Part shown: positions 17,447-51,560 of the stretch, piece after piece
How positions within the stretch are numbered: the first letter of the stretch is position 1
Layout of the letters: every line of letters starts with the position of its first letter
Assembly: GCA_945883775.1 (NCBI GenBank)
Contig: CAMCYG010000004.1
Coordinates: 1,844 to 65,843, forward strand
DNA: 64,000 bases
From: Victivallis vadensis
GTDB lineage: Bacteria; Verrucomicrobiota; Kiritimatiellia; UBA8416; CAMCYG01
Direction: 5' to 3'
Made by a program: the position numbers and the translations under genes
Notes under the pieces: generated by a model
Told to the model about the DNA's origin: nothing
The model's database searches: none
The model's input: only the letters and a program-made list of their open reading frames with translations

Positions 17447-17515
17447 TTGTTTCTCCGGTAAATTAAATACGTTGAATAATCAATATCAAAACCACCAAGG
17501 GAGTAAAGCGTAATA

Positions 17516-17767: not shown

Positions 17768-17785
17768 CGTTATGATGTATATGAT

Positions 17786-19605: not shown

Positions 19606-19608
19606 TGT

Positions 19609-21345: not shown

Positions 21346-21360
21346 GTGGTCTCCAATGGA

Positions 21361-22179
21361 TTATAGGCTCTTCTTGAACCTGATCTTCTGTTGCCGGTAT
21401 GCGTTCAGCTCCGGCAGGCTTTTCTCCATCTTGTCGAAATTGATTTCGGGGAGGTCTTTCTCGAATGACGGGTCATTCGGATTTCTCAGCGCCAGAGTCA
21501 TTGCGCCCCTGAGTTGCTGAACGAACACAAGCAGTTCCGCTTCTTTCGGCGTGACCTCAAGTGTGACTGTGCTGTAGCTGGTGCTTTTGGCTTTCTTGCC
21601 GTCAAACGCCTGATCTGCCATGGTTTGGCCGACCGCTAGAACTGTGACATCCTGGAGCATTGTAAGAGTGACCGTCTCGGTCTGTGTCGGGTTGGTCTTC
21701 AGCGGCATATTGAATGTGCCGAGGACATCAATCTGGTTGTTAGGCTGTATCATTCCGCTGACTGCATTAGCGCCGCCGATAGGGAGGGATATAGCCCTCA
21801 TGCCCGGTTTGATCTTTGGTGCAAGTCCGGTGTGGGTTGCCGACCCGCCCACGATGTAATCCCAAAGGATGGGCTTTTTGGCTGATATCTCTGATTCTGC
21901 TTTCTTACCGACGATGTATTTGTACTCACTTCTCATTACGACTCTATCCGGCAACTGCGCCTCGAAGAAATCCTTTGCCGCCAGATCGTCGGCGCTGATG
22001 GTCGTTCCGCTAGGTATATTGTTACGAGCGACTACCACCTCAACCATTTTTGCATTCTTATAAATCAGCTCTTTTGCTTTCTGGACCTCATCGACCTTTG
22101 CCTTAAGATACTGACTGGTCAGAATGAAGGCTACAATTCCTATGACAACCGCTATTATCGGGATTAGTTTCTGTTTCAT
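21361..22179 (-). CDS. cpaB: Flp pilus assembly protein CpaB/RcpC
   Basis: N-terminal TM segment, a SAF-like segment (VVVARNNIPSGTTISADDL), and a C-terminal RcpC-type segment (MRAISLPI...IQPNNQIDVLGT...VTVLAVGQ...VTLEVTPKEAELLVFVQQLRGAMTLALRNP). Confidence 0.85.
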   Translation of the reverse strand: MKQKLIPIIAVVIGIVAFILTSQYLKAKVDEVQKAKELIYKNAKMVEVVVARNNIPSGTTISADDLAAKDFFEAQLPDRVVMRSEYKYIVGKKAESEISAKKPILWDYIVGGSATHTGLAPKIKPGMRAISLPIGGANAVSGMIQPNNQIDVLGTFNMPLKTNPTQTETVTLTMLQDVTVLAVGQTMADQAFDGKKAKSTSYSTVTLEVTPKEAELLVFVQQLRGAMTLALRNPNDPSFEKDLPEINFDKMEKSLPELNAYRQQKIRFKKSL

Positions 22180-22205
22180 ATCATCTCCTGTTGCTGTTCA
22201 AGTTA

Positions 22206-22940
22206 TTACAATTTAAGAGGCATATGCAATAAAGTAATCGTGGAATATCCGCTTTGACTTTTCTGCACATAAAGAATGCAATTCTCTCCGGCTTTTGAGA
22301 AGACCGACATACATGATTGGCCCGCGGCAGAAACAGGTTTTATCGGCAAAGACCAGCCGGAAGACTGCATGGACGATGTCATGTAGGACTGGATAGATTC
22401 GGTGGCAGCCGGCGCTTTCTCAAACGACAGGGACATGCCCGTTTTTTCATCCTCAATGCCAAGATCGGTGCTGGAGCCTGGATATGACGGAAGTTTACTG
22501 ATCGCTGCGGGGCGGGCAGGGGAATCGGCACCGGCACGGGTCATTCTTATCAAGTATATGACAGTTGATAGAGATTGCGGCATCTTGATCGCCATGATCG
22601 TTGTCTTGTATGCAGGGTCGTCGATGTTGCCTATTATCATACCGTCCCCGGCCATCTTAATGAAATCTTTGCCGTATGTATCGATCAGGGTCTTCATCGT
22701 GTCCCGGAAACTGGTGCTGGTGCCTATGGTCTCCAGATAGCCCTTTTTTCCGTTAACCACGATGTCTGACTTGTAGATGGAAGCGCCATTAATGGCTGAT
22801 ATGACATCGTTGATGCCAGCCGGCCCTGAGCCTGTGAGTTTAAATATTCGCCCGTGTGATAGAAGTGTCGTTAGGCACAAGGTCACTGCGATAACCGTGT
22901 ATCTCATCCAGCTGGATAAATTATATATATGTATTTTCAT
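22206..22940 (-). CDS. hypothetical exported protein inside the Tad operon
   Basis: 244-aa ORF with a signal-like N-terminus (MRYTVIAVTLCLTTLLSHG is a possible true start). No family motif recognised. Confidence 0.45.
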   Translation of the reverse strand: MKIHIYNLSSWMRYTVIAVTLCLTTLLSHGRIFKLTGSGPAGINDVISAINGASIYKSDIVVNGKKGYLETIGTSTSFRDTMKTLIDTYGKDFIKMAGDGMIIGNIDDPAYKTTIMAIKMPQSLSTVIYLIRMTRAGADSPARPAAISKLPSYPGSSTDLGIEDEKTGMSLSFEKAPAATESIQSYMTSSMQSSGWSLPIKPVSAAGQSCMSVFSKAGENCILYVQKSQSGYSTITLLHMPLKL

Positions 22941-23075
22941 TCAAGCCTAATTTGTACTCTCTGTGCTACACGCATCAACTTCCTTTGCGAAGAATCGCCG
23001 ATCAGGGGATCGGCTCCTACAGTCTGAGCTCAAAGGTAGAGCCGGTTTAATACCGTCTATATCTCCTCTGAACCA

Positions 23076-23210
23076 AGATAGCCGGGGTAAAACCGGCCCT
23101 ACCTTTTCGGAATTGAGGTAGGGCGAGGCCTTCCGCCTATGCCAAGAGGCTCCGGCGAGACATGCTGGCCGAGCCGTCTTTTGTGATTCGCAATTTGTAA
23201 TCTGTGATTG
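23076..23210. repeat. intergenic structured repeat, copy A (two hairpins + GTAGGGCGAGGCC core + TGTGATT tail)
   Basis: Hairpin GCCGG-ggtaaaa-CCGGC (23081-23097). Hairpin CCCTACC...GGTAGGG (23097-23123). Then GCGAGGCCTTCCGCC...GGCCGAGCCGTC and TGTGATTCGCAATTTGTAATCTGTGATT. Confidence 0.75.
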
Positions 23211-23212
23211 TT

Positions 23213-23710
23213 TCAATATATCCCTTTAGTCCACGTCATCCATGCTTCGCATTCGATGTCTATCGAATCGGCGTCATACAAGAAATGCCTGACTGCTGGT
23301 ATCATGTCTATCTGCGCAGAGGTTTTTGCCTGGCCTTTTATCAAGCCAAACACTGATGATGGCACGGCAGAACCGTGCAGTTGTGAAATTTTGTTAGCGT
23401 TAAGCTTGTCGATATACTGCCATTCAGTAGGATCGGCTACAGACTTCTCTACAATCGTATTCTGCAGGTCGAACGGGTTTGCCGTATCTGAGGTATCATC
23501 GGACGTTAATTGTTTTTCGTCGCCGCCTTCCTGCCAATCTTTAATATAGTCGGCAGAGGTCATGGGGTCGAAATCCATCATCATATCAGATGCCGCGTTT
23601 TCCCTGGCTTCCGTCATCGTCTCTGTTTGTGCCCTGGTGAGCGAGACCAGTTGAATCATTCCAGCGAAAAGGACAAGCACAGCCACAAGTCCAATGATGA
23701 ACTCAATCAT
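23213..23710 (-). CDS. TadE-like pseudopilin / pilus assembly protein
   Basis: Start trimmed to the M at 23710 (GQA-MIEFIIGLVAVLVLFAGMIQLVSL). This is a TadE-type hydrophobic N-terminus. The track ORF extension runs through repeat copy B and into the upstream gene. Confidence 0.55.
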   Translation of the reverse strand: MIEFIIGLVAVLVLFAGMIQLVSLTRAQTETMTEARENAASDMMMDFDPMTSADYIKDWQEGGDEKQLTSDDTSDTANPFDLQNTIVEKSVADPTEWQYIDKLNANKISQLHGSAVPSSVFGLIKGQAKTSAQIDMIPAVRHFLYDADSIDIECEAWMTWTKGIY

Positions 23711-23763
23711 TGCCTGCCCGTTTCTGTTATATTTGGTTGCAGGGCTAATTGTGATCGGTCTCC

Positions 23764-23840
23764 AGAATAGCCGATATAAAATCGGCCCTGTCTTGGTCCG
23801 GCAAGGTAGGGCGAGGCCTCCGGCCGAGCCGTCCTTGGCC
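23764..23840. repeat. intergenic structured repeat, copy B
   Basis: Hairpin GCCGAT-ataaa-ATCGGC (23770-23786). Hairpin CCCTGTCTTG-gtccgg-CAAGGTAGGG (23786-23811). Then GCGAGGCCTCCGGCCGAGCCGTCC. Confidence 0.75.
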
Positions 23841-23870
23841 CAAATGGGACACTTTAAGTTTAATAATCGT

Positions 23871-25328
23871 CTAATGTCCACGGCGTGTACCTCCTCCGGG
23901 ACCACCACCGCCACCGGGCGGTAATATGCAAAGATAATCATATTCATCCAGCCAATCGGAGCCGGCTTTCCGGAATGTCCTGCTTTCCCATGTTAAAAGC
24001 TGTTTGCAGTAATAACATTCCGACATTTCATCGTTACTGTTTATAGCGTCTGGCCCTGTGTCCATGTACATGGATAAATGTTCGTCAATATGTTTGCGCC
24101 AGGCAAGGTTGTAGCCGCCGCCTGACCCGAGAGTCGAGGCGTCGAGTGGAATGAGCCGAACATCATGGTATGCCGGCATGACCAGTTCATACGTGTTTGG
24201 CAGGGAGGGGCCGTCGAGATATCCAAATGGTTTGGCGGCTGCCAGCCAGTCAACTGTGTTCTGAAGTTTTGCGCCGCGAGCGCCAGGCGTAACTCGCGTG
24301 GCAGTGGCTGATACCCGGACCACCGCGTCGACTCCGCTATAATCATACTCAGGCTTTATCGTGCCTGTGACCGGGAATGCGCCAAGGTCATTGAATTTTA
24401 TCTTGTCCCATGATCGGCTCCAGTGCTCTTCATTCATATTGTAGCAGTACCAGTTTGCCGTCACACTTGCGCCTTCATCGGTGACGGCACCTGTGAGGTT
24501 CCTGTCTTCCAGTATTTTATCAAGGACGTCTCGGTCTGTGACGGGATTGAGCCGTGATTCAATTCTTAGCAAGTCGAGCCCGAATATTTCGGAGTTCATA
24601 TAAGAAGGGTGTTCCGGCACAGGCAGGCCAGGCCACCAGCAGGGAAAGAAATTCTCGTATTCGTCGAGCAGGTCACGTGCATTATGGTAGAACCAGCACC
24701 AGCTCTGTCCTGCGACGGCGTCATAGAAGTCCGGCCTCAATAGATAATGGCCGCTGGCATAATCAGTGTAATATGACACATTGTCAGGTCCGGCCGCTAC
24801 ACCGTCAGAGGCGACGAGATCTATCATGTCAGCGTATTCCTGCCAACAGTTGGTATAGGGCTCCTGAAACAGGGTAGAGCCGTCAGCGCCGCTGATCTCA
24901 GTGTAATCCTCTCGTACAGATCTGGCATGTTCGCTGGTTATCTCATCGAAGTCATGGTTTCTGAAAATATTGTTGGCCTTGGCTGCTTGCTGTGCGGCGA
25001 CCATTGCAATCATCGGGCCAGTGTAGCATAACCGGGCTCTGATATTGTCAATGCATGCAGAAGCCGCGTAATTGCTTTCGGAAAGAGCTATGGCATTAAG
25101 GATATTCAAATCTCCAATGAGATTCAGGCTTATGCCCTGCCATCTTGCTGCAGCAAGAGCTGATGAGTCGCCTGCATTCTGGGTTATCGACTTAACGTGT
25201 ATTATCCTGTGTACGTCATAGTTCCATAGAGCCATAAAGACAAGGATGACAAGGATCATCATCATGAACATGAGTATCTGTCCTGAGCGTTTGCCGCGGT
25301 TTTTCTTATTTTTCCAGATAAAGCGCAC
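23871..25328 (-). CDS. TadG-like pilus assembly protein
   Basis: N-terminal RGKRSGQILMFMMMILVILVFMALWNYDVHRI...QNAGDSSALAAAR fits the TadG-like N-terminal domain. 485 aa with a Gly-rich C-terminus (PPGGGGGPGGG). Confidence 0.7.
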   Translation of the reverse strand: MRFIWKNKKNRGKRSGQILMFMMMILVILVFMALWNYDVHRIIHVKSITQNAGDSSALAAARWQGISLNLIGDLNILNAIALSESNYAASACIDNIRARLCYTGPMIAMVAAQQAAKANNIFRNHDFDEITSEHARSVREDYTEISGADGSTLFQEPYTNCWQEYADMIDLVASDGVAAGPDNVSYYTDYASGHYLLRPDFYDAVAGQSWCWFYHNARDLLDEYENFFPCWWPGLPVPEHPSYMNSEIFGLDLLRIESRLNPVTDRDVLDKILEDRNLTGAVTDEGASVTANWYCYNMNEEHWSRSWDKIKFNDLGAFPVTGTIKPEYDYSGVDAVVRVSATATRVTPGARGAKLQNTVDWLAAAKPFGYLDGPSLPNTYELVMPAYHDVRLIPLDASTLGSGGGYNLAWRKHIDEHLSMYMDTGPDAINSNDEMSECYYCKQLLTWESRTFRKAGSDWLDEYDYLCILPPGGGGGPGGGTRRGH

Positions 25329-25941
25329 TATGGTCCTCTATAACTGCTTTCCCGTGCAGTTCTACGGTGTCATCTACATAGAAAGCCTTGTGCATCGGCA
25401 CCCAGTTGGAGACCACCTGGCTTACGGTGACGTCTATGAACGGTGTCGACCCCTCAATATATGAACCCATGTCAGGTGCAGAGATCCCGATATTGTCCCA
25501 TCTGGCATAATCCAGAATCGCTCTCGCCCGGTTCTCGTTGTCGCTTGCCATAAACTCGGGGATCCGGGCTCGCTCGATGTTAAGTTGGTTCAGGGCAGGT
25601 GTGACCCCAATGCTCTGTATGAATATTGTACCGGGCTTCTCGTTGTCGATCATTGACTGAAGAACAGCATCTTCATTGTCGAACTCAGGGACTGTCATTC
25701 TGCCGGCATTCGGTATGGTGGCAACCAGTACAGCCTTATGACTCATCCATTCATTAAATCCGACGGTCTTGGCTCGCGCCGCTCGCGCCGCGGCATGATA
25801 CAGAATCTCACGCGCGGTGAATAGCTGGGAAACCTGGAACAATCCAAAGAAAATTAGGCAAACAAGACCCATCATAAGACAAGTCTCTATAAGCGATTGG
25901 CCCCCTTTATTTGAAGGGTAAGGCAAATCTGTCCGACGCAT
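25306..25941 (-). CDS. TadE-like pseudopilin / pilus assembly protein
   Basis: N-terminal KGGQSLIETCLMMGLVCLIFFGLFQVSQL is TadE-type. 211 aa. 23-nt overlap with the downstream TadG-like gene. Confidence 0.62.
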   Translation of the reverse strand: MRRTDLPYPSNKGGQSLIETCLMMGLVCLIFFGLFQVSQLFTAREILYHAAARAARAKTVGFNEWMSHKAVLVATIPNAGRMTVPEFDNEDAVLQSMIDNEKPGTIFIQSIGVTPALNQLNIERARIPEFMASDNENRARAILDYARWDNIGISAPDMGSYIEGSTPFIDVTVSQVVSNWVPMHKAFYVDDTVELHGKAVIEDHSALYLEK

Positions 25942-25996
25942 ATGTCTTATCGCTTTATTTTGGATGGGTCTGCTTAACTGCTGATGCCATCTTTAG

Positions 25997-26233
25997 TTAT
26001 GGAGCGGCGACGCCGTCTTTTGTTATGGACTTCAGTCCATCTACTGACGGTGTATCCACGGCAGTATCTACTGCGCTGGTGTCTCCACCAAGTTCTACCA
26101 CAGCTCCGCCCATCATCGCCCGGATTCTGTCGCTGAATACGCCGAAAATGGCCAATGCTGCAATTGCGATTATAACCACGATAATGATATACTCAACCAT
26201 AGTCTGTCCGCTTTTACTGCTCTTTCTGCTCAT
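25997..26233 (-). CDS. flp: Flp-family type IVb prepilin (79 aa)
   Basis: Start set at 26233: ATG lies 9 nt after AGGAGG. MSRKSSKSGQTMVEYIIIVVIIAIAALAIF contains the G/XXXXEY processing motif plus a hydrophobic helix. Confidence 0.72.
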   Translation of the reverse strand: MSRKSSKSGQTMVEYIIIVVIIAIAALAIFGVFSDRIRAMMGGAVVELGGDTSAVDTAVDTPSVDGLKSITKDGVAAP

Positions 26234-26256
26234 TTTTATCATCCTCCTGTTCAATG

Positions 26257-26406
26257 TTATGGATATTCCGATGCCACCAGTTCTACTACTCGATATGACT
26301 GCTCCCTGAAAGTGTATAGCAATATCGACACTATAAGCACCATAGTCGTTACTATCGCAGCAGTGATCGCATATTCTACCATAGCCTGACCCCGGCGGCT
26401 TTGCAT
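26257..26406 (-). CDS. flp: Flp-family prepilin (about 50 aa; start uncertain, 26406 or 26421)
   Basis: MQSRRGQAMVEYAITAAIVTTMVLIVSILLY has G/XXXXEY followed by a hydrophobic helix. No clear SD for either candidate start. Confidence 0.55.
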   Translation of the reverse strand: MQSRRGQAMVEYAITAAIVTTMVLIVSILLYTFREQSYRVVELVASEYP

Positions 26407-26503
26407 AAAGCACTTTGTCATGGCAAGAATGTTACCAGCTTGACGCATACATGTAAATTATTTATATTAAAATCTGTTTCTGGCCGTTATTTAAAGTATC
26501 TGC

Positions 26504-27592
26504 ATGAAAAATTATTTTCTTTATATTACGATATGTCTTTTTGCTCTGCATGCGCTGGCCGGGCTAAATATTTGCGGGAAGTGCGGATACGAGAATGGCG
26601 CCGATGCTGTCGTATGCAATCATTGCTCAGCCGCCATGTCACCAGCAAAGGGTAATACCCAAGCCAAAGAGGAAGTTCCGCGAGGTATTATCGGAATAGA
26701 CGAGAAGGTTATCAAGGGACAGCTTGTGCTCGCCGACACGGCTTTTGCGAAAGGTGATGTGTCTCTGGCTCTTCTGCGGTATAGGAATGCGGCAGCGCTT
26801 AATCAACTTGTCGAAAATGCTGACCCGGCTCTCGGGAGCAGGATTCTTGCTCAAATCAAGAAGTGCAGGGCGGTCGAAGACGTCGGCTCTCGGAAGTGTC
26901 CTGTGTGCGAGGGTGGCGGTGATTACGTGATGAGTTACAACGATCTGTCAGGCGCGGAACAAACCCGAACAGTGAAGAATAAAATGTGCGAGACCTGTTT
27001 TGGGACCGGTAAGATAAAAGTCCCGCTGACCGTTGACGAGAAAAAGTTCAAGATTGGACAGGCGAGCCGAAGGTTTGCAGAGGAGCAGCAGTCCAAGCGC
27101 TGGATCAGTGTGGGAAATGCATGGTTGCCTGCCAGCGCGGATGGCCTTCTGACTGCAAAACAGACGGCAATTGTGACGAAAGCGATGGCCGATGCCTGTA
27201 AAGAGTGCGGCGGATTCGCTAAAGTAGATTGTGGTAAATGTAAGGGACGCGGACAGGTCACTTGCCCCGGGAAATGCGATCATGGCATGGTCCGGATACA
27301 GGAAGAGTTTAGTATGACCAAATCAAAGCTCAACAGGACCGAGAAGTGCAAGACCTGTAAGGGTAAGGGTAGTGTCATTTGCGAAGAATGCCGGGGGCAG
27401 GGCAAAGTTTTATGTGATAAGTGCGAAGGAACAGGAGAGCGGGCTGACTGTGCTAAATGCAGTGGTGCCGGGGCTGTGGAGTGTTCCAAATGCAAAGGTA
27501 CAGGCAATGCCAAGGACGGCAAGTGTGCCGGTTGCCGGGGTGAGGGATTTAGCTTATGTAACGCCTGTAAAGGTGATGGGAAGAAGAAATGA
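26504..27592 (+). CDS. exported Cys-rich protein: zinc ribbon + TPR-like region + about 12 DnaJ-type CxxCxGxG units
   Basis: Signal-like N-terminus MKNYFLYITICLFALHALAG. CGKC-x10-CNHC ribbon. Units CPVCEGGG and CETCFGTG, then CKECGG/CGKCKGRG/CPGKC, then seven contiguous units CKTCKGKG...CNACKGDG. No J domain. Confidence 0.7.
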   Translation: MKNYFLYITICLFALHALAGLNICGKCGYENGADAVVCNHCSAAMSPAKGNTQAKEEVPRGIIGIDEKVIKGQLVLADTAFAKGDVSLALLRYRNAAALNQLVENADPALGSRILAQIKKCRAVEDVGSRKCPVCEGGGDYVMSYNDLSGAEQTRTVKNKMCETCFGTGKIKVPLTVDEKKFKIGQASRRFAEEQQSKRWISVGNAWLPASADGLLTAKQTAIVTKAMADACKECGGFAKVDCGKCKGRGQVTCPGKCDHGMVRIQEEFSMTKSKLNRTEKCKTCKGKGSVICEECRGQGKVLCDKCEGTGERADCAKCSGAGAVECSKCKGTGNAKDGKCAGCRGEGFSLCNACKGDGKKK

Positions 27593-30500
27593 GCGATTTC
27601 AACCTTCCAGGTTTCGAGGTGCTGGAGAAGCTGGGGCAGGGCGGGATGGCTACCGTATGGAAGGCTCGTCAAATTTCTCTGGACCGTACGGTTGCCATCA
27701 AGATACTTCTCTCGCGGATGTCTCGCGATCAGTCGGATGTTGACAGGTTCCTTGCGGAGGCAAGATCCGCCGCCAAGCTCAAACATCCCGGGATAGTCCA
27801 GGTCTATGATGCTAATGTCGATCAAAACTTGTATTACTTCGTTATGGAGCATATAGGTGGTTATACGGTTAGCGACTGGATTAAGCGCAAGGGCCATTTA
27901 TCAGAAACTGATGCATTGCTTGTTGCTCAAAGCGTCGCCGATGCACTCGGGTACGCGTGGGAGTCCCAGCGGCTTATACACTGTGATATAAAGCCAGATA
28001 ATGTAATGGTCGACTCGGATGGAACTCTCAAAGTGACCGATCTTGGTCTTTCCAGGACTATTCAAGCGGCCTATGACAATGAATTCGAGGATGAGGTCAT
28101 GGGCACGCCTGCTTATATGTCACCGGAGCAGGTTCTCGGCAAGTCCGATCTGGATTTCAAAAGCGATATCTATTCTCTCGGTGCGATGCTTTTCCATATG
28201 GCGACGGGGCGCCTGATGTTTGAGGGGCAGGACGAAGAAAAGGTCATGGAAATGCAGGTCAGCGGGGTGGAGGAAGACCCACATGATGTAAATCCGCAAT
28301 TGACAATGCCTATATGCTGGTTAATCGAGAAGATGCTAATCAAAGACCGTGCGCAGCGGTACGGCAGTTGGTCTCAAGTTCAGGACGATATACTGAGGGT
28401 CAAGCGTGGTGTGCCGCCCGCAGGGCACAAGCCCAAGGAAGGCTTGAGTTCTGTCAAGCGGTCAAAATTACGTAATCATCCTGATTCATTCAAGACGCAT
28501 AACCAGCATACGGTCAAGAATAGTCATTCCTCTCGATCGGCCGTAATTATCATGCTTGTTGTGCTGGCCTGTGCTGCAGCAGCAGGTGTCTGGTATTACA
28601 GCAATAAACAACAGGAAAAGATCCGTGAATTGGAAGCTCAGAGGATAGTGGTGCAGAGGAATGAGAGCAAGGAGGCACAGCAAGAGGCGGAGAGAAAGGC
28701 GAAGGAGGTTTCTGCCCGGGAAATGTTCGAGTTCGCGGAGAAATGGGCTGCCTCTAATCCAGGTAGGTATGATGAAGCATGTGAACGATTCAAAAGTGTG
28801 GCATCGCAGACCAAGGGAACCAAGTATTCGCTGATGGCTGATGACAAGGCGAGTGAAATCGACCGTGCAAAGAATGATGAGTGCAGCAAAATATTCGGCA
28901 GACTAGCCCTTGATGCCGCAAAACTGGAGTCTGCCGGGGACTTGATAGGTGCTGCGAAAATTTATACTGATTATAAAGGTACGCTGGCTGGTAGTACGGA
29001 GGCTAGGCGGACCGAAGCCGCTGACAAATTGATGGCGAGGCATGATAAGTTGATTTCCGAAAAGAAAGTTATGAAGGACAAAGCGGACCGCATATATCAT
29101 GGCATGGTCAAGGAGGTAGCTGCAGTGGTTCTGCAGAAGGGAGCCGGAAATGCACTGGTGCTTTTATCTTCCAATGCGAATAAGGCTGAATTTACTGACT
29201 ATATGACGCAGATCTCCGAAATGAAGCAATTGCTTCATGATGCAAGTCGCATAGATGACGATGTTCTGCAGTCATTTGCCGATCAAGCTGGTGCTGATGT
29301 GCAGATAGAGACGACAACCGGCTCAAAGAAAATGACGATAAAGGAAGTCATTGGCGGGAAAATAATTGCGGAACAGAAAAAGAAGTCAGGGGCTGCTGAA
29401 TATTCAAGTACTTGTTCATTAGCTCTTGGAGATATTGCCCTTAAAGAAAGGTTGATCAGGATGGGCGACGAAGCAAAACCGCATGTCGCGCTGGCGAAAG
29501 GTTTACTTCTGTTTAGCAATAAGCAGACGGAGGAGGCAAAGAAATGCTTTGCTGCAACCGGGGTGCTCCTGTCCAAGCCTATTTTGGATAATATCAGTGA
29601 AAGCAGTGTCAATGCGAGCGGCCGGCAGAAAAACGGAACAAATACCAGAGATGTTTCCGGTCCGGAAGTTAAAAGAAGGCAGGTTTTTGAGCATGTCGTG
29701 CATGCTGACTATCAAGGTATGCTGGATGACCAGGATCAGATACTAGAGGCGCTGTATCGTTTGAATCCGGATTTTCCGAGTGGTCAGATTCGAATGAGTG
29801 CTTCAAATGGTGATGGAAAGGCTTCTAAAGTGCTGTTTTATGGTGCAGGAGGGGCGCTTCTTCGCGATATCGCCCCCTTAAGTGCTCTAACCTCTCTCAA
29901 GGTTCTGATTTATTCTGCTGAGCCAGGGGCAAAGTCCAGATTGAGCGATATATCCTGCCTTAAGGGATTGGATATGAAAGTTATATCCCTGCCAAATACG
30001 CGGATAAGCGATATCACTGCGCTGAACGGTATGACGCTGGACGAGTTGAATCTGTCAGGAACTGATGTGTCTGATTTGTCGGTGCTTAAGACGATGGACG
30101 TAAAAAGTCTTAGTCTGAATAATATAAGAGCGAGCGACTTCTCCTTCATTCAGGGGCTTGGTAATCTTACCGAATTGAGCCTCGCAAATTGCCTTTCCAA
30201 GGATTTGCGATTTCTTAAAGGGCTCAAACTGGATTCGTTGGATTTGTCGGGTGTCAAAGTAATGGATTACTTTTCGATGTCCGGCCTTGATCTTAAAAAA
30301 CTTGTGCTCACTAAGTCTGGCGTAAAGAGCTTGGACTTTTTAAGGGCAATGGCTAGGCTTGAGTCCCTGGATTTGGGAGAAACGCAAGTTGCGAGTGTGT
30401 CATATTTAAAAGGGGTTCCGCTGAAGGAGCTTAACCTGAACAATACTTCGATTAAAGATTTCTCCATTCTGAAAGATATGCCGCTGACCGTCCTTAATTT

Positions 30501-30945
30501 ATCAGGGACTGCATTCGGCTCGATCGACCTGGTCAAAGGAAAAAAGCTTGAGTCGCTGGATATCTCCAAGACCAAGGTAATAGATATCAGCGGGCTATCA
30601 GGTATGCCTCTGGCGTATCTCAACGTCGAGAATACATATGTCAGCAATGTCAGGGCACTGAAGGATGCGCCACTCAAAATATTTATGTGCAGGGGGGCTC
30701 GGATTAATGATTACAGCCCGTTGCGGGATTCTAGCATTGAGAGCCTTTGGATTGATGAGCCCTTCAAGCAAAGGGAATTATTGAGGAGTTTGAGTAGCCT
30801 GAAGGAGCTTAACGGACGGGTTCCTTTGGAATTGTTAAATGAATCAATCATGGAGGATAATCGAGCGATTGGGCCCCAGATTGGAACGCCTTTTGAAAGA
30901 GTTAGAGAAGGCGGACGTCGGCCTAGACATGCTCCCGTAAAATGA
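27589..30945 (+). CDS. receptor-type Ser/Thr kinase: N-terminal Hanks kinase, one TM, coiled-coil, C-terminal LRR ectodomain
   Basis: LGQGGMATVWKA...AIK, HCDIKPDNVMV, DLGLS and GTPAYMSPEQ. TM at about aa 317-337. About a dozen or more ~22-aa LRRs (LxxLxLxxTxVSDLSxL type) in the last ~300 aa. ATGA overlap with the upstream gene. Confidence 0.88.
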   Translation: MSDFNLPGFEVLEKLGQGGMATVWKARQISLDRTVAIKILLSRMSRDQSDVDRFLAEARSAAKLKHPGIVQVYDANVDQNLYYFVMEHIGGYTVSDWIKRKGHLSETDALLVAQSVADALGYAWESQRLIHCDIKPDNVMVDSDGTLKVTDLGLSRTIQAAYDNEFEDEVMGTPAYMSPEQVLGKSDLDFKSDIYSLGAMLFHMATGRLMFEGQDEEKVMEMQVSGVEEDPHDVNPQLTMPICWLIEKMLIKDRAQRYGSWSQVQDDILRVKRGVPPAGHKPKEGLSSVKRSKLRNHPDSFKTHNQHTVKNSHSSRSAVIIMLVVLACAAAAGVWYYSNKQQEKIRELEAQRIVVQRNESKEAQQEAERKAKEVSAREMFEFAEKWAASNPGRYDEACERFKSVASQTKGTKYSLMADDKASEIDRAKNDECSKIFGRLALDAAKLESAGDLIGAAKIYTDYKGTLAGSTEARRTEAADKLMARHDKLISEKKVMKDKADRIYHGMVKEVAAVVLQKGAGNALVLLSSNANKAEFTDYMTQISEMKQLLHDASRIDDDVLQSFADQAGADVQIETTTGSKKMTIKEVIGGKIIAEQKKKSGAAEYSSTCSLALGDIALKERLIRMGDEAKPHVALAKGLLLFSNKQTEEAKKCFAATGVLLSKPILDNISESSVNASGRQKNGTNTRDVSGPEVKRRQVFEHVVHADYQGMLDDQDQILEALYRLNPDFPSGQIRMSASNGDGKASKVLFYGAGGALLRDIAPLSALTSLKVLIYSAEPGAKSRLSDISCLKGLDMKVISLPNTRISDITALNGMTLDELNLSGTDVSDLSVLKTMDVKSLSLNNIRASDFSFIQGLGNLTELSLANCLSKDLRFLKGLKLDSLDLSGVKVMDYFSMSGLDLKKLVLTKSGVKSLDFLRAMARLESLDLGETQVASVSYLKGVPLKELNLNNTSIKDFSILKDMPLTVLNLSGTAFGSIDLVKGKKLESLDISKTKVIDISGLSGMPLAYLNVENTYVSNVRALKDAPLKIFMCRGARINDYSPLRDSSIESLWIDEPFKQRELLRSLSSLKELNGRVPLELLNESIMEDNRAIGPQIGTPFERVREGGRRPRHAPVK

Positions 30946-32663
30946 TTTCCATGGAAGACGACAAATGGCAAGTCTTGTTTCTGCAGTTGCCGAATATCGA
31001 TAAGCAGACCGTTTGGCATTCGGAGAACCCTAAATTAGCAGCGGTCTATCTGTCAAACTCCGTTCGCAATTCTAATGAATCAGGGAATTGGTCGCTGATT
31101 GTTCCCCCAACGGATTTGGACCTGTGCGGTGACGCTGCTTTGATAAAATTCATCATCGCACAGAAGCCGGATGTCATCTGTATGACACTGTATCTGTGGA
31201 ATGTGGAGCGGTCGGTCGCGATTATAAGGCGGATAAGAAATATTCTGCCGCGAGTTCATGTTATGGCTGGAGGTCCGGAAGTCGCCTTCGATCATCCTTT
31301 TCTTTTTGCCGGTACTGATATTGACATGGCGCTGGAAGGAGATGGTGAATCATTGTTTCCGCATATGCTTGAGTGCGTAAGAACGGGGAAGCCGCCGGAC
31401 TATGAGTCCGTGATATTTCTTGATAAAGGCAATTATACTGTCGGGAGCAAAAAAGCGGAAATTCAGTCGCTCGCCTCAATCCTTCCTTCTCCGGATGATC
31501 ATCTGCTTGCGCCGGACAATAAGGGTGTTGCCTACCTGGAGACTGGCCGGGCTTGTCCTTACAAGTGTACTTTCTGCAGATACAGCAGGATGCGCAAGAA
31601 GGTGTCTTTTATCTCCGCGGAAGATGCAGTTCGTCGGGTTGCTGTGATGATTGAGCGCGGTGCTAAGGAAATAAGGTTCATAGATCCTTCAATGAATATG
31701 AATCCCGATTTTGATAAGATATTAGCAGGGCTTATCAGGGTAAACAAGAGGGGCAGGGTTGGTTTCTTTGGTGAGATGCTTGCCGAATATGTGACAGCGG
31801 ATCAGGCTGTGCTCATGAAGACGGCCGGGTTCACTTGTATTGAAGTCGGGGTGCAGAGCACTGATCCTGATGTCTTGAGGGCTGTGAGACGGCCGGCGGA
31901 CGGTGCCAGGGTCTACGAAGGGATCATGAATATGTCTAAGGCCGGCCTCAAACAGACTATCGATCTTATGTGCGGCCTTCCGCTTCAGGGCCTTTGTGGA
32001 GTTAAGAGTGCCCTCAAGACTTATGCGGCGATACCAGGGGCAGAGGTGCAATTTCTTCATGCGCTGCTTTTGCCTGGTACGGAGATAAGGAGGCAGGCCG
32101 GTGAGTATGGTATGGCCGCTATGCCAGTTCCGCCTTATAAGGTTGTGAGCACTGTTACCATGAGCCAAAAGGACATGATGCAGGCTGATATCGAATATCA
32201 ATCGGCTACCGGTCTTTATCCTGATGCGGAAGAGTCATTACTTGTGACAAGGAGCCTGCGCCGGTTTTATAATGATAGGCAGTGCATCGATCTTGATTCT
32301 ACCCATCCGTGCGAACTCCTGACTGACCGTTCGATATACAGGGCGTTGATCTTTAAGTCGGCAGACTTCTGGGCTGGACGTGAGAAGTTGTTCGCAATCA
32401 TTGAATCAGCTTGCAGGCAAGAGCCGCATTCAATGTGGCAATTCATACTGTCGACTGATAAAGAGTTTCCTTTGGATCTGATTGATGTCGTAGTTGCCTC
32501 AATAAAGAAACTCGATGATGTAGTTGCCGACCGGATGGCTGCTGCAGGTGACTCTGATAGAACCGTATCGAGAAGAATATTTCTTCTGCTAGAAAAGAAA
32601 TCCTCTATACCCAAGCAGTGGGTCGATGAAGCGGAGCATCTGCTTATGTCAGCGTTTCGTTGA
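30942..32663 (+). CDS. B12-binding-domain radical SAM protein with uncharacterised C-terminal extension
   Basis: Rossmann-like N-domain (PDVICMTLYLWNVERSVAIIRRIRNILPRVHVMAGGPEVAF). Radical SAM cluster motif CPYKCTFC. About 170 aa of C-terminal sequence with no motif recognised. ATGA overlap with the kinase stop. Confidence 0.8.
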   Translation: MISMEDDKWQVLFLQLPNIDKQTVWHSENPKLAAVYLSNSVRNSNESGNWSLIVPPTDLDLCGDAALIKFIIAQKPDVICMTLYLWNVERSVAIIRRIRNILPRVHVMAGGPEVAFDHPFLFAGTDIDMALEGDGESLFPHMLECVRTGKPPDYESVIFLDKGNYTVGSKKAEIQSLASILPSPDDHLLAPDNKGVAYLETGRACPYKCTFCRYSRMRKKVSFISAEDAVRRVAVMIERGAKEIRFIDPSMNMNPDFDKILAGLIRVNKRGRVGFFGEMLAEYVTADQAVLMKTAGFTCIEVGVQSTDPDVLRAVRRPADGARVYEGIMNMSKAGLKQTIDLMCGLPLQGLCGVKSALKTYAAIPGAEVQFLHALLLPGTEIRRQAGEYGMAAMPVPPYKVVSTVTMSQKDMMQADIEYQSATGLYPDAEESLLVTRSLRRFYNDRQCIDLDSTHPCELLTDRSIYRALIFKSADFWAGREKLFAIIESACRQEPHSMWQFILSTDKEFPLDLIDVVVASIKKLDDVVADRMAAAGDSDRTVSRRIFLLLEKKSSIPKQWVDEAEHLLMSAFR

Positions 32664-32698: not shown

Positions 32699-33703
32699 TC
32701 AAATCCTGCCATCACGGGAAGCGCTGATGAATTCCATGCCGTATTCGTCATTTCCGAGGAGCAGATCCTTGGCCAGCTTGAAGCTTTCGCTGTTTGCATC
32801 CAGATTCTGCAGCATTTTCTCGTTGATCTGTATCGGGTCAACTATACCGCTGTCGGCTCCGTTCTCTACGGCTAGGTAGGTAAACACCTGATTAATCAAC
32901 TTTCTTGCAGGCATGCCGAAGGATACATTGCTGAAGCCACCTGAGATGTGTATTGCCGGACCATAGGTTTTTCTTATCGATGCAACAGCTTCCAGGAAAG
33001 CTTTTCCGTTGTTGCCGTCAGTTGATATAGGGAATACGAGCGGGTCAATATAGATGGAGTCATCAGCAAACCCAGCAGTTTTTAGCATTTTCATCAGTTC
33101 TGCGAGGTTTGAAAGCTTCTCTTCGGTAGAGGAGGGCAGTCCTTTTTCTCCAGCGGCAGATGCAATGACGACGGCCTTGTATTTTGCCGCGACATCGATA
33201 GCCTTGACTCGCTCCAGTGAAACAGAGTTAACCATCGGATTGCCGCGATTTTTGTCTGCGGCCTCCAATCCTGCATTCAGGATAGCTTCGTTGGACGAAT
33301 CGACGCTGATAGGGATCTTGACTGCCTTCTGGACAACGTTCACAGTCCACTGCATGAGCCTGACGCGCTCGGCGACATCCGTGCTGAATTCGTCGACGTT
33401 GATGTCAAGGTACGATGCTCCGGCCTTTTCCTGTTCAATAGCCTTGCATGTTATATAGTGTGCGCCGGAATCTTTATCGCCATAGACGCCCTGCCATATT
33501 GCAACTGCGCAGTGCTTCACTTTCTCAGCCTGCCAATCAGCAGACTTCAGAAACTTCTCGGGGACCACAAGAGCGCAGCTTTTTTCGCCATCTTTGTAGG
33601 TGATAGCATGCTTGCCGGGTGATACTTCTTTAACGTTTGCGCCCCCTACTTTAAGTATCCTAGTGCAGTGAATGTTTTCTCCGATTGGTATGAATTTTGC
33701 CAT
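32699..33703 (-). CDS. pterin-binding methyltransferase (methyl-THF:corrinoid methyltransferase, MeTr/MetH pterin module-like)
   Basis: IGENIH, YLDINVDE, PISVDSSN, MVNSVSLE, YIDPLVFPIS and GGFSNVSFGMP parallel the MeTr/AcsE and MetH pterin-domain pattern. Confidence 0.82.
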   Translation of the reverse strand: MAKFIPIGENIHCTRILKVGGANVKEVSPGKHAITYKDGEKSCALVVPEKFLKSADWQAEKVKHCAVAIWQGVYGDKDSGAHYITCKAIEQEKAGASYLDINVDEFSTDVAERVRLMQWTVNVVQKAVKIPISVDSSNEAILNAGLEAADKNRGNPMVNSVSLERVKAIDVAAKYKAVVIASAAGEKGLPSSTEEKLSNLAELMKMLKTAGFADDSIYIDPLVFPISTDGNNGKAFLEAVASIRKTYGPAIHISGGFSNVSFGMPARKLINQVFTYLAVENGADSGIVDPIQINEKMLQNLDANSESFKLAKDLLLGNDEYGMEFISASRDGRI

Positions 33704-34590
33704 TATCGTACTCCGTTTATTAGTTTTTTGATTGCTGTTATATGTTCCGGCGTCGTGCCGCAGCAGCCGCCGATGATATTGGCGCCTGCCTGTATGACTA
33801 GTTTAGCGTTCTCTGCCATTTCCACCGGCTGTTCCGGAAAGACATCCTTGCCGTTGACGTTTACCGGCATGCCGGCATTGGCATGGACCAGAATGGGTAT
33901 GTTTGTGTCAGCTGTTCTTATTTCGCGGACGATATCGGCCATGTTCTTCATGCCGTTACCGCAGTTTGTGCCTACAATGTCAGCCCCGGCAAGTTTCATT
34001 GCACTTGTCATGTCCGTCGGAGACACGCCCATCATGGTCCTGTACTCGCCCTGCATTGTCTTTTCAAACGTAAATGTGACAATGATTTCCAGCTTGGTGT
34101 TTTCTTTTGCGGCCTTGACTGCGCACCTCGCCTCATCAATGTCTGAGAATGTTTCTATACAGACGGCATCAGCGCCACCTTTCTCAAGAGCCATTATCTG
34201 GTCTCGGAACGCGCTATAAAGCTCTTCTTCTGTAACGTCTCCCATGAGGAGCATCTTGCCGGTTGGTCCCACAGAAGCTATGACATGCTTATCTTTACCT
34301 GCGGCTTCTCTGGATATTTGTGCAGCGGCAAGATTGAATTCTGAAACTCTTTCTGTAAAGCCGAAATGTTCCAGTTTGAATCTTGTCCCGCCGAAGCTGT
34401 TGGACTCTATCATGTCTGCGCCAGCGGCCACATAGCTTTTGGCGATGGCAAGCACGATGTCTCTATGATCAATGCACCAGAGTTCTGGGCATTCACCTGG
34501 TTGCATGCCACTTTTTTGAAGAAAAGTGCCCCATGCACCGTCAGAAACCAGTACACGGCCGCTTTTAAGCTCGTCTTTGATTCTTTGCAT
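33703..34590 (-). CDS. homocysteine S-methyltransferase domain protein (MetH Hcy-binding module-like)
   Basis: VLVSDGAWGT, IESNSFGG, VGTNCGNG and IIGGCCGTTPEHI (zinc-ligand Cys residues). TAATG overlap with the downstream pterin-module gene. Confidence 0.88.
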   Translation of the reverse strand: MQRIKDELKSGRVLVSDGAWGTFLQKSGMQPGECPELWCIDHRDIVLAIAKSYVAAGADMIESNSFGGTRFKLEHFGFTERVSEFNLAAAQISREAAGKDKHVIASVGPTGKMLLMGDVTEEELYSAFRDQIMALEKGGADAVCIETFSDIDEARCAVKAAKENTKLEIIVTFTFEKTMQGEYRTMMGVSPTDMTSAMKLAGADIVGTNCGNGMKNMADIVREIRTADTNIPILVHANAGMPVNVNGKDVFPEQPVEMAENAKLVIQAGANIIGGCCGTTPEHITAIKKLINGVR

Positions 34591-34662
34591 GCCGTAACAG
34601 AACCATATCAGCTAATGGCAGTCAAGCCTGTCTTACTCTTATGAAGCCGACGGTTTTCTGTG

Positions 34663-35298
34663 TCAGACGCCGCAAAGTTTCTTTGCAAGATCAGCAGCCG
34701 ACGCGGCATCAGGGGCATAGCCGTCAGCACCTATCTCGTCAGAGTAGGCCTGAGTAACCGGGGCGCCACCGACCATTATCTTTGTCTTGGATGCGATTGC
34801 CGAAGCCTTAAGTGCGGTCACAACCGCCTTCATGTTTGTCATGGTGGTGGTGAGCAGGGCGGATACTCCAATGATGTCAGCATTGTGCTGTGCAGCTGCT
34901 TCCACGAATTTCTGAGGTTCAACATCTATGCCGATGTCGACGACCTTGAATCCTGCACCTTCAAGCATCATACATACTAGATTTTTTCCGATATCGTGCA
35001 AGTCGCCCTTTACTGTACCTATGATGGCAATCGCCTTGGCCTGAACTCCTGCTGCTACCAGTTTGGGTTGGAGAATTGCCATTCCTGCCTTCATCGCGCG
35101 TGCCGCAATAAGAACTTCCGGGACATAGACTTCGTTTTTCTTAAACTTCGCACCTATGACACTCATTCCGGAAAGCAGTCCTTCGTTGAGGATCGTGGAA
35201 GGGGCTATGCCTTCAGCAAGCGCCTTTTCAACATGCAGTTTTACATCGTTAGCTTTTCCCTTCATCAGACTTTCGGCCATAAGTTGAAGCGTGCTCAT
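34663..35298 (-). CDS. corrinoid (cobalamin)-binding protein, cap + B12-binding domains
   Basis: DLHDIGKNLV (DxHxxG), SALLTTTM (SxL) and MVGGAPV. 211 aa. Confidence 0.88.
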   Translation of the reverse strand: MSTLQLMAESLMKGKANDVKLHVEKALAEGIAPSTILNEGLLSGMSVIGAKFKKNEVYVPEVLIAARAMKAGMAILQPKLVAAGVQAKAIAIIGTVKGDLHDIGKNLVCMMLEGAGFKVVDIGIDVEPQKFVEAAAQHNADIIGVSALLTTTMTNMKAVVTALKASAIASKTKIMVGGAPVTQAYSDEIGADGYAPDAASAADLAKKLCGV

Positions 35299-35458: not shown

Positions 35459-36679
35459 ATGGCAATATTGTCGAAAAGACTGATTGGTCAGGTATCTGCC
35501 GAATATAGCAGGAGGTTCGGGTTAAAGGCCCGTCTTGTTAATGTCGCCGGCAGGGTCGAATCGCTTGACATTGCTAACCCAATAGTCAGACAGCCAAAAA
35601 GAAAAACAAGCTATGCGTTGCATGAAAGTATTAATCTAGGGGTTCCTTATGTATATACGATCAATGGCTCCATCGCAGTCTGGGTTGTCGGGCTCGAAGA
35701 TTGTAACATTGTGCATGGCGGCCTGATTAGCGGAGAGGTCCGGTTGCAGTCGCCTTCCTCCTATAGTAGAAGTGTTTTGGCCGTCGATAATATTATCAAG
35801 CAGTTTGTCGATGCGGGAATGTCCGGCGAGGATGCTGGTAGGTATGTAGATGGCTTGCCGATATGGAATGACGAGCAGGTGCGGGTGGCTGCGGAAGCTC
35901 TTCAGGATATATTTTATATGATGAGCGGATGGAAACCGGTACTTATCAGAGAGAACAGGCTCAAACATCTGCAGAAGGAACAGTTCAGCAGGGCGATTGA
36001 AGACCAGCGGAAGACTGGTGTGCAGGTTCTGTATAATTTTGAGAAAGAGCGGTTGCTCCTGACAAATATAAAGGCTGGCGATAAGAATGAGGCGCGCCGT
36101 ATGCTCAACGAAATGCTGGCGATGATATACATGTCGAGTCAGCAGATGGCAGTGCTCAGGGCTCGAACTATCGAATTGTTAAGTTACCTTTCGAGGGCCG
36201 CTATTGAGGATAACCCCATGCTGGAGCCGCTTATCGAGAAGAATCATTCATGGATACATAAACTCGTGAAAGCCAAATCATTTGAAGAATTGTCCGAGGT
36301 TCTGCGTTGTGCCCTGGATGAGTTTATCAATGGCATTTACCTGCACGGGGTGAACCGGTCCAGCAAGAAGATACGGGCTGCGCTGGACTATATCAATATC
36401 AGTTACGGTCAGAAGGTGAGCCTGTCGACTACTGCAGCGAAAGTCGGTTTGAGTCCATGGAGATTTGCTCATCTGGTGAAAAGTCACACAGGTAAGACTT
36501 TCTCTCAAACTCTGCAGCAGATACGCATACAGAATGCCCAGAGACTGCTTGATAGGACATCGAAAACCTGCACCGATGTGGCTTACGCATGCGGGTATCA
36601 AGACCAGAGTTATTTCATAAAACATTTTCGCAGGATAACAGGAACCACGCCGGCCAAGTACCGTAAATGCGGCGGTTGA
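35459..36679 (+). CDS. AraC-family transcriptional regulator with ~290-aa N-terminal sensor region
   Basis: C-terminal double HTH (VSLSTTAAKVGLSPWRFAHLVKSHTGKTFSQ...VAYACGYQDQSYFIKHFRRITGTTPAKYR). Divergent from the corrinoid operon. Confidence 0.8.
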   Translation: MAILSKRLIGQVSAEYSRRFGLKARLVNVAGRVESLDIANPIVRQPKRKTSYALHESINLGVPYVYTINGSIAVWVVGLEDCNIVHGGLISGEVRLQSPSSYSRSVLAVDNIIKQFVDAGMSGEDAGRYVDGLPIWNDEQVRVAAEALQDIFYMMSGWKPVLIRENRLKHLQKEQFSRAIEDQRKTGVQVLYNFEKERLLLTNIKAGDKNEARRMLNEMLAMIYMSSQQMAVLRARTIELLSYLSRAAIEDNPMLEPLIEKNHSWIHKLVKAKSFEELSEVLRCALDEFINGIYLHGVNRSSKKIRAALDYINISYGQKVSLSTTAAKVGLSPWRFAHLVKSHTGKTFSQTLQQIRIQNAQRLLDRTSKTCTDVAYACGYQDQSYFIKHFRRITGTTPAKYRKCGG

Positions 36680-40628: not shown

Positions 40629-40734
40629 ATGGTTTACAATAAATTTGAAATATAGCTGCGAAAGGGAGCAAAATATACAAAAATATTGAGACTGAACAAG
40701 CTATGGATAATTCTGCATGATTCTTATGCGGAAT

Positions 40735-40896: not shown

Positions 40897-40934
40897 GAGA
40901 ATCTGAATACGGACTACTATGGCGATAAATGCTC

Positions 40935-42497: not shown

Positions 42498-42511
42498 TGT
42501 TGATTATCCGT

Positions 42512-51539: not shown

Positions 51540-51560
51540 TAACTGGATTGATATTGCCTT

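Follow-up and report, generated by a model that had tools for sequence, protein, structure and literature searches.

A putative exported Cys-rich protein and a leucine-rich repeat receptor kinase are encoded as a conserved pair next to a Tad pilus locus of Lentisphaerota and Kiritimatiellota

A 64,000-nucleotide stretch of Victivallis vadensis DNA (GenBank assembly GCA_945883775.1, contig CAMCYG010000004.1, positions 1,844 to 65,843), hereafter called the window, carries three overlapping genes on the plus strand. Gene 1 (26504-27592) encodes a 362 amino acid (aa) protein rich in CxxCxGxG repeats, gene 2 (27589-30945, 1118 aa) a Hanks-type Ser/Thr kinase with leucine-rich repeats (LRRs) and gene 3 (30942-32663, 573 aa) a B12-binding radical S-adenosylmethionine (SAM) enzyme. 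A preliminary description, made from the sequence of the window, had reported two ATGA stop/start overlaps joining these open reading frames (ORFs), and both were recovered at the gene 1/gene 2 (27589-27592) and gene 2/gene 3 (30942-30945) junctions, with coordinates and junction sequence in agreement. The domain architecture proposed there for all three genes also agreed with profile searches, the matches of gene 1 being sub-threshold only. Likewise, Pfam assignments supported the presence of a divergent Tad/Flp locus with an FHA-bearing CpaF-type ATPase less than 100 bp away, the gap between the flp ORF and gene 1 being 55-97 bp depending on the flp start codon chosen. As judged from gene order in related genomes, the conserved unit is an operon of genes 1 and 2, part of a type of Tad locus seen in Lentisphaerota and Kiritimatiellota.

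Loci containing gene 1 were gathered from a word-indexed search, a reference-genome scan with a 4-sequence alignment, a metagenome scan, which contributed only three loci, and an exhaustive profile search. With near-duplicate contigs counted once, 18 gene 1 loci were obtained, the window included, from metagenome-assembled genomes of Lentisphaerota and Kiritimatiellota. A Hanks/LRR kinase gene was present directly 3' of gene 1 in 14 of the 16 loci that reach far enough. The two kinase-less exceptions are L017, where an SDR-like ORF follows gene 1, and L025/26, where gene 1 is followed by a convergent aminotransferase gene. In about 10 of the 14 loci the stop codon of gene 1 overlaps the start codon of the kinase gene, as ATGA or TAATG. 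Divergently upstream of gene 1, the Tad block was found in 15 of 17 informative loci (exceptions L014 and L027), and the order of the Tad genes was identical wherever related contigs extend far enough. The preliminary description had proposed to compare the synteny of all three genes in other genomes; this comparison retained the pair of genes 1 and 2 (14/16), but not gene 3, which directly follows the kinase gene in one of nine informative loci, namely in this window only. In six of these nine loci the kinase gene is followed by a convergent IF-2B-family gene, often then by Rce1-like and GT2 genes. Homologues of IF-2B, Rce1, GT2 and NAD synthase were not found anywhere in the 64-kb window, and the window kinase has the longest tail past the LRR cap among the kinases compared. 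From the long tail and the absence of the usual downstream genes we infer a lineage-specific local rearrangement that placed gene 3 behind gene 2 in this lineage only.

The region between gene 1 and the flp genes harbors a conserved bidirectional promoter core (26429-26468, both strands), which was located by a consensus scan and by alignment of the loci. The scan detected both promoters of the window, one at 26440-26468 on the plus strand and one at 26457-26429 on the minus strand. The gene 1 promoter consists of the -35 hexamer TTGACG (26440-26445) and the -10 hexamer TATATT (26463-26468), and the flp promoter of the -35 hexamer TTTACA (26457-26452) and the extended -10 element TGgTAACAT (26437-26429). 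Each -35 hexamer sits within the spacer of the opposite promoter, so that two promoters of the sigma70 type are interdigitated. A gapless alignment of the core of about 40 bp was possible for 12 non-redundant loci, all of which share TTGAC, whereas TGTAAA and the 'TA' of both -10 elements (flanking TA-rich hexamers) show very little variation. Across the loci, the pattern on the plus strand ahead of gene 1 is a -35 element TTGACn, a spacer of 16-17 nt and a -10 element TAnnAT, and that on the minus strand ahead of flp is TTTACA, a spacer of 17 nt and TAnnnT, often extended by TGn. The core was found in 14 of 14 loci having a divergent flp gene together with the kinase gene, loci in which the presence of the kinase could not be read included. 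In the same search it was not found at the Tad-less loci L014 and L027 or at the kinase-less locus L025.

The inferred start sites of the flp and gene 1 transcripts lie approximately 53 bp apart. Given the footprint of RNA polymerase, two polymerases could not sit on both promoters simultaneously, so that joint control of the pilin operon and of the operon encoding gene 1 and the kinase is likely, either by competition or by one regulator. The noncoding core is conserved even though the gene 1 proteins share 30-40% identity, and we regard this as the strongest single sign that the gene pair and the pilus are functionally linked. The position of the promoter also bears on the start of flp2: the -10 hexamer of the inferred flp promoter (26429-26434) lies downstream of the listed start at 26448, and the true start is therefore probably Met10 (26421) or Met15 (26406), in agreement with where homologues begin to align.

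The divergent Tad/Flp block (17786-26448, minus strand) comprises ten genes whose assignments are supported by Pfam. Starting next to gene 1, these are flp2 (listed ORF, 26257-26448), flp1 (25997-26227), and the genes for a TadE-like protein (25306-25941), a TadG-like protein (23871-25328), a second TadE-like protein (23213-23947), orf244 (22206-22940), RcpC/CpaB (21361-22179), the FHA-CpaF ATPase (19609-21345), TadB (18706-19605) and TadC (17786-18709). The block therefore holds the core set of a Tad/Flp (type IVc) system, which consists of Flp, TadE/F/G pseudopilins, RcpC/CpaB, the CpaF/TadA ATPase and TadB/TadC. The Pfam matches of the two Flp proteins are weak (27 and 16.6 bits, under the gathering score), and both proteins carry the G/xxxxEY motif (GQTMVEY and GQAMVEY). 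In the TadG-like protein, five Cys residues are invariant in eight orthologues (C101, C211, C438, C441 and C467), including a CxxC. The secretin RcpA/CpaC, TadZ/CpaE, TadD and the prepilin peptidase TadV/CpaA were not found in the 17786-26448 block or its immediate flanks. A short secretin-like ORF (44880-45782, minus strand, 300 aa) is located 19 kb from the Tad block, where it overlaps an unannotated ORF of 226 aa (45779-46459). Adjacent are a gene for the exosortase EpsH and a WecG/DUF3485 fusion, in a region that includes 46631-47560. By analogy with the Kil system of Myxococcus, which uses an unusually short secretin, it is conceivable that this ORF is linked to the Tad block.

The N-terminal domain of the CpaF ATPase (aa ~20-96, 21058-21288, minus strand) was delimited by Pfam and by an orthologue alignment and matches both the FHA (49.2 bits) and the Yop-YscD_cpl (48.7 bits) models. 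All seven orthologues aligned have Ser in place of the GR-motif Arg and Glu or Asp in place of the SxxH-motif Ser, the acidic character being invariant, and the Asn of the NG motif is variable. The register was confirmed by residue alignment to the FHA domains of Rv1747 (6cah) and CT664 (3gqs). Thus, the canonical phosphothreonine contacts of FHA domains are missing from this degenerate domain, in which the His and a fold-level signal remain. It is followed by a poorly conserved linker rich in Pro, Ser and Thr (aa ~100-170). Recognition of a phosphothreonine made by gene 2 through the CpaF FHA domain was considered first and then downgraded, as the contact residues are lost in all seven orthologues and the same FHA domain is present at the kinase-less locus L025.

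The protein encoded by gene 1 begins with MKN-YFLYITICLFALHALA followed by G and has an N-terminal hydrophobic segment (MKNYFLYITICLFALHALA followed by G), the signal-like part comprising aa 1-20. It is followed by a CxxC-x10-CxxC zinc ribbon (C24-C41), three helices (aa 67-124), a DnaJ-like hairpin pair (C132/C135 and C162/C165) and a zinc-knuckle array (aa 232-359). About 12 CxxCxGxG units, seven of them contiguous at the C-terminus, had been noted before, and the count was reproduced with ten strict units, one relaxed unit (CKECGGFA) and one CxxxC unit (CPGKCDHG), the seven contiguous units spanning residues 282-359. These DnaJ/BSD2-type knuckles would form seven Cys4 centres. In an AlphaFold2 model (mean pLDDT 77), the ribbon, the three helices, one DnaJ-like double hairpin and the C-terminal knuckle array were predicted. 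The best fold matches of the model are the zinc modules of BSD2, DnaJA2 and anti-TRAP, and these are weak (E 0.03 or worse). A stretch described earlier as TPR-like coincides with the three predicted helices, and its TPR fold matches were weak (E ~1-3).

All matches of gene 1 to the Pfam models DnaJ_CXXCXGXG, BSD2_CRD and Zn_Ribbon_1 were under the gathering score, with PF00684 reaching 26.9 bits compared with a cut-off of 32.7. No J domain was found by Pfam and no match was obtained with NCBIfam. An assignment as a DnaJ/Hsp40 type I chaperone was rejected, given that a J domain is lacking and PF00684 stays sub-threshold, the likeness being confined to the motif and the local fold. The word-indexed search with gene 1 returned seven relatives and understated the family compared with the exhaustive HMMER profile search, which yielded 205 clusters at E <= 1e-30. 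Of the 150 top-ranking clusters, almost every one measures 330-440 aa and matches over its full length. Gene 1 is thus a member of a family of at least 205 clusters for which neither Pfam nor NCBIfam has a model. All 28 Cys residues in CxxC or CxxxC pairs are invariant among seven homologues of 34-72% identity, and most members of the family carry 13 CxxC motifs (109 full-length members). A hydrophobic N-terminal stretch lies just ahead of the ribbon in 104 of the 109 full-length members and is preceded by Lys or Arg in 92 of them; AxA-like motifs occur a few residues ahead of the first Cys in many members of the family. Such an arrangement is what a Sec signal peptide would show, and by this heuristic export of gene 1 via a Sec-type signal, as originally suggested for the single protein, is likely for the family.

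The kinase domain of gene 2 (aa 9-261, 27613-28371, plus strand) matched the Pfam Pkinase model (PF00069) with 174.8 bits compared with a cut-off of 31.7. It is followed by one strongly hydrophobic stretch that represents a putative transmembrane (TM) helix (aa ~316-338, 28534-28602), and the LRR_4 model matched with 51.3 bits (cut-off 27). The remainder of the protein was modeled with AlphaFold2 on a 4-sequence alignment (mean pLDDT 76); in the word-indexed search with the ectodomain, three true gene 2 orthologues were recovered amid generic LRR proteins. The predicted ectodomain comprises a long helical domain (aa ~360-565), presumably periplasmic, a small beta module with helices, and about 13 internalin-type LRRs (aa ~796-1052, 29974-30744), behind which lies a disordered tail. 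The LRRs were modeled as strand-turn repeats with a period of 21-22 aa and a pLDDT of 84-93, and Foldseek matched them to internalin A (InlA, E = 3.5e-14) and a Roco LRR (E = 1e-13). The single TM helix between the kinase and the modeled LRR solenoid supports the extracytoplasmic location that the preliminary description had assigned to the LRR domain. Its view of gene 2 as a plant receptor-like kinase (RLK) of inverted polarity was not upheld: the order of kinase (9-261), TM helix (~316-338) and LRRs (~796-1052) differs from that of plant-type LRR-RLKs and is the standard layout of bacterial receptor kinases such as PknB.

Across nine gene 2 orthologues, the catalytic motifs of the window kinase (GQGGMATVWKA, VAIK, HCDIKPDN, DLG and GTPAYMSPEQ) vary little or not at all, VAIK, HCDIKPDN, DLG and the pattern GTPxYxSPEQ being invariant, and the kinase is therefore probably active. 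In all nine aligned orthologues the Arg of the HRD motif in the catalytic loop is replaced by Cys (HCDIKPDN), which makes gene 2 a non-RD kinase. Non-RD catalytic loops of this kind (Cys-Asp) are associated with pattern-recognition receptor kinases of plants and animals. An assignment of gene 2 to the PknB/Stk1 PASTA kinases (NF033483) was rejected, as the match reached 275.2 of the 450 bits needed and stops at residue 374, and Pfam detected no PASTA domain.

Gene 3 matched the Pfam models for the B12-binding (PF02310, 49.1 bits compared with 32.1) and the Radical_SAM (PF04055, 73.9 bits compared with 29.5) domains, both above the gathering score, and contains the cluster motif CPYKCTFC (CxxxCxxC), as had been noticed before; its domain content places it in class B (cobalamin-binding) of the radical SAM enzymes. 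All 31 NCBIfam matches were far under the cut-off, the best being TIGR04013 (97.5 compared with 251 bits). Membership in a characterised B12-radical SAM subfamily (TIGR04013, PhpK, KedN5, HpnR, BchE, Mmp10-type and others) was rejected, since no NCBIfam cut-off was reached and PDB matches were distant. The closest solved relatives are the methyltransferases TokK (E = 5e-16) and CysS (E = 2e-12), and gene 3 is probably a housekeeping-type enzyme, a methyltransferase. Its family contains hundreds of full-length homologues of about 570 aa, labelled Kiritimatiellia, Lentisphaerae and Desulfobacterota, with 36-42% identity. The C-terminal stretch of about 170 aa that the first analysis could not place is indeed matched by no Pfam model; because the homologues align over 98% of the length, it is a conserved part of the family.

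The neighbours of gene 3 homologues differ at all of five independent loci, where they encode extended sigma-70 proteins, MreB and HU, arginyl-tRNA synthetase, RF1/PrmC, and RuvC and RuvA. Neither a kinase nor gene 1 or a Cys-rich protein was present at any of these five loci. Together with the single occurrence behind the kinase in nine loci, this speaks against the earlier proposal that the three genes form one functional unit. Gene 1 was not found in the Desulfobacterota, which the gene 3 family reaches, in the reference-genome scan. Gene 3 lies outside the conserved module, although its transcript here is probably shared with genes 1 and 2. Apart from the window, L016 is the only locus with a gene 3 homologue near the module (17085-18824, minus strand, 39% identity). 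A second B12-binding radical SAM gene of the window (53501-55021, plus strand, 506 aa) is located inside a glycosyltransferase/SAM methyltransferase cluster (49381-61757); as the window holds at least two such genes, they appear to be common in this genome.

Downstream, three minus-strand genes (32699-35298) encoding pterin-binding, homocysteine S-methyltransferase and B12-binding domains resemble a split cobalamin-dependent methionine synthase; they converge on gene 3, with 35 bp separating the stop codons, and are followed by an AraC/PocR-like regulator (35459-36679). A second Hanks Ser/Thr kinase with a double zinc ribbon (7748-10174, minus strand, 808 aa) is overlapped on the opposite strand by a Kdo/WaaP-like kinase ORF (10011-11174, plus strand), and the genome seems to be rich in kinases. 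A further LRR ORF (1631-2689, plus strand, 352 aa, LRR_4) is distant from gene 2. The window also contains an ordinary biotin synthesis cluster (38636-44682, minus strand) with BioA-, BioD-, BioC-, BioH-, BioF- and BioB-like genes. A scan for transcription terminators gave no signal above shuffled background.

We propose, with a probability of roughly 60%, that genes 1 and 2 encode a Tad-associated envelope sensor pair that acts on the pilus and that gene 3 is an unrelated passenger. The operon of genes 1 and 2 would be transcribed from the sigma70-type promoter interdigitated with that of flp. The gene 1 protein would be exported and meet the kinase ectodomain in the periplasm, as a sensor or as one half of a co-receptor pair. 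Gene 2 would relay the signal inward, its cytoplasmic kinase domain phosphorylating a cytoplasmic target, and the phosphorylated target would adjust production or activity of the Tad pilus. This target might be CpaF, in its Pro/Ser/Thr-rich linker, a different component of the Tad machine or a factor that acts on the shared promoter. In line with the degenerate contact residues, the FHA domain of the ATPase probably does not read out the target by binding phosphothreonine in the canonical way. Export of gene 1, its contact with the ectodomain and the Tad machine as output are thus putative steps, suggested by the sequences and the gene neighbourhood.

Several observations weigh against this proposal. 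The FHA domain of the ATPase lacks the Arg, Ser and Asn contacts and occurs in the same degenerate form at L025, where no kinase is encoded. A PP2C phosphatase was found neither among the scanned ORFs of the 64-kb window nor, as a domain, in the related loci with Pfam tables. Gene 1 accompanies the Tad block without the kinase at two loci (L017, 2836-3720; L025/26, 11238-12539 of L025) and accompanies the kinase without an adjacent Tad block at two others (L014 and L027), and the L014 kinase (5602-7695, 697 aa) has no LRR domain. Export of gene 1 was deduced with a heuristic and not with a trained predictor, and a Cys4-zinc protein would be unusual in the periplasm. That the kinase acts on the Tad machine is suggested by gene context. 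Regarding the passenger role of gene 3, it abuts gene 2 (overlap or gap <=5 nt), so that it is probably co-expressed here, and the L016 homologue lies 2.7 kb from the kinase gene. The latter is on the opposite strand, beyond the convergent IF-2B gene, and its position may reflect leftover regional synteny and not a functional link.

A tentative alternative is that gene 1 acts mainly as a periplasmic holdase or thiol-disulfide chaperone for the pilins or for the Cys-bearing TadG-like pseudopilin, the kinase having been added later for regulation and not relying on gene 1 as its co-receptor. Such a role would be consistent with the loci L017 and L025/26, where gene 1 keeps company with the Tad block, all knuckles intact, in the absence of the kinase. 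Its best fold matches, the BSD2 and DnaJ zinc modules, bind client proteins, even though the matches are weak (E 0.03 or worse), and the TadG-like protein with its five invariant Cys residues, a CxxC among them, would be a plausible client. In plants, a list of proteins that handle disulfides in thylakoid membranes includes LQY1 and CYO1, two DnaJ-like zinc-finger proteins (PMC3800646). However, gene 1 and the kinase travel together without an adjacent Tad block at L014 and L027, and the conserved stop/start overlap of the two genes argues for their stoichiometric co-production.

It is very improbable that the three genes act in one pathway, with the Cys-rich protein or some other partner of the receptor kinase being modified by the B12-radical SAM enzyme. 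Co-transcription here is suggested by the ATGA overlap (30942-30945), and the L016 homologue lies within 3 kb of a kinase gene. On the other hand, that copy is in opposite orientation beyond the IF-2B gene, the radical SAM gene does not directly follow the kinase in eight of nine loci, and none of the five independent loci of its homologues, with their varying neighbours, contains gene 1 or a kinase. Moreover, the radical SAM family covers a wider range of taxa than that of gene 1, and the second B12-radical SAM gene at 53501-55021 indicates that such genes are common in the genome. Least probable of all is that the kinase, with or without gene 3, is an anti-phage defence gene like the PD-T4-6 or MADS kinases that lies beside the pilus locus by chance, since the PADLOC matches (PD-T4-6 and mad6 on the kinase domain, the candidate PDC-M51A on the radical SAM enzyme) and the partial NCBIfam MAD6 match are limited to generic kinase and radical SAM cores and far under NCBIfam cut-offs, PADLOC gave no match on gene 1, and the kinase keeps its pairing with gene 1 and the Tad block, in collinear order and with a shared promoter, throughout two phyla, which is not how a mobile defence island behaves.

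The proposed sensor pair was compared with known systems. It can be set beside the threonine phosphorylation pathway of type VI secretion (T6SS) in Pseudomonas aeruginosa (PpkA, PppA, Fha1 and TagR). In both cases the genes of an envelope nanomachine are accompanied by one for a Hanks kinase that crosses the membrane once and has a periplasmic domain, an accessory protein, here predicted to be periplasmic, is encoded upstream of the kinase and an FHA module is present on the side of the machine. In contrast to the T6SS pathway, the machine is a Tad pilus, no PP2C was found in the window, and the FHA domain forms one polypeptide with the ATPase and is devoid of the residues that bind phosphothreonine. 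Furthermore, the ectodomain is helical with LRRs instead of a vWA domain, and the accessory protein carries multiple zinc knuckles and is unrelated to TagR. By analogy, the module thus resembles the T6SS pathway in its logic but lacks two of its defining features, the phosphatase and a canonical FHA domain. The T6SS phosphorylation pathway has also been taken as a model for Tad-like systems in the work on Kil, where a signalling cascade was proposed by analogy (PMC8460266).

FHA-fused CpaF ATPases with an N-terminal FHA domain and a disordered linker have been recognised as 'class III' and described as mostly betaproteobacterial (PMC12019362), and KilF of Myxococcus is an FHA-fused Tad ATPase encoded in a locus rich in FHA proteins (PMC8460266). 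The ATPase of the window shares with these the N-terminal FHA domain and the disordered linker, and the locus resembles Kil in lacking TadD and RcpB-type parts and in containing genes of unknown function. It differs in its occurrence in Lentisphaerota and Kiritimatiellota, in the degenerate FHA domain, in the absence of a secretin from the block and in having a dedicated Hanks kinase and a Cys-rich partner predicted to be exported, neither of which these papers report. More generally, no paper in the literature searched connects Tad loci with a Hanks kinase or with an exported protein rich in Cys.

Gene 2 has in common with PknB/Stk1 the N-terminal cytoplasmic Hanks kinase, the single TM helix and the C-terminal extracytoplasmic sensor (NF033483, ~275 bits), but is under the 450-bit cut-off, has no PASTA domains and carries a sensor of helical domain and about 13 LRRs as well as a non-RD (HCD) loop. 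With plant LRR receptor kinases and their secreted Cys-rich ligands it shares the LRR ectodomain, the kinase superfamily, the non-RD loop and a Cys-rich partner, here encoded alongside; its domain order is reversed and its LRRs are of the 21-22-aa internalin type. This likeness should be seen as an analogy only and not as a sign of common descent of the whole architecture or of contact between ligand and receptor. Gene 1 resembles the DnaJ Cys-rich domain, BSD2, anti-TRAP, LQY1 and CYO1 in its CxxCxGxG repeats, which are predicted to form zinc-knuckle hairpins. It is set apart from these proteins by about 12 units instead of 2-4, the lack of a J domain, a Sec-type signal that predicts an extracytoplasmic location, and a kinase and a pilus locus as its genomic partners.

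Taken together, the radical SAM gene is an ordinary one, and the actual feature of this locus is a Tad-associated gene pair with a shared promoter and a new family of predicted exported zinc-knuckle proteins. The stop/start overlap of gene 3 cautions that an overlap in a single genome does not turn an operon into a pathway. The FHA domain of the ATPase should not be assumed to be a phosphothreonine reader in this clade, and the poly-CxxCxGxG proteins define a sizeable, putatively exported family that has been without a Pfam or NCBIfam model. Tad pili serve in adhesion, surface sensing and, in predators, contact-dependent killing, and to our knowledge the control of when cells build them is largely unknown outside Caulobacter. 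The analysis genetically ties a kinase and its predicted exported partner to a Tad locus with an FHA-fused ATPase across two phyla of the Planctomycetes-Verrucomicrobia-Chlamydiae group, with a promoter core common to the pilin genes. A bolder form of the proposal, which we consider rather unlikely, holds that the zinc-knuckle protein is a dedicated periplasmic ligand or co-receptor of the non-RD LRR kinase and that the pair controls the Tad pilus by bypassing canonical recognition of phosphothreonine by FHA domains, for instance through a phosphorylated ATPase linker or by acting on the promoter region that flp and gene 1 share. If this was true, bacteria would have evolved independently a counterpart of the plant systems in which LRR receptor kinases are paired with secreted Cys-rich proteins, and a sensory input would for the first time be defined for a Tad machine whose ATPase is fused to an FHA domain.

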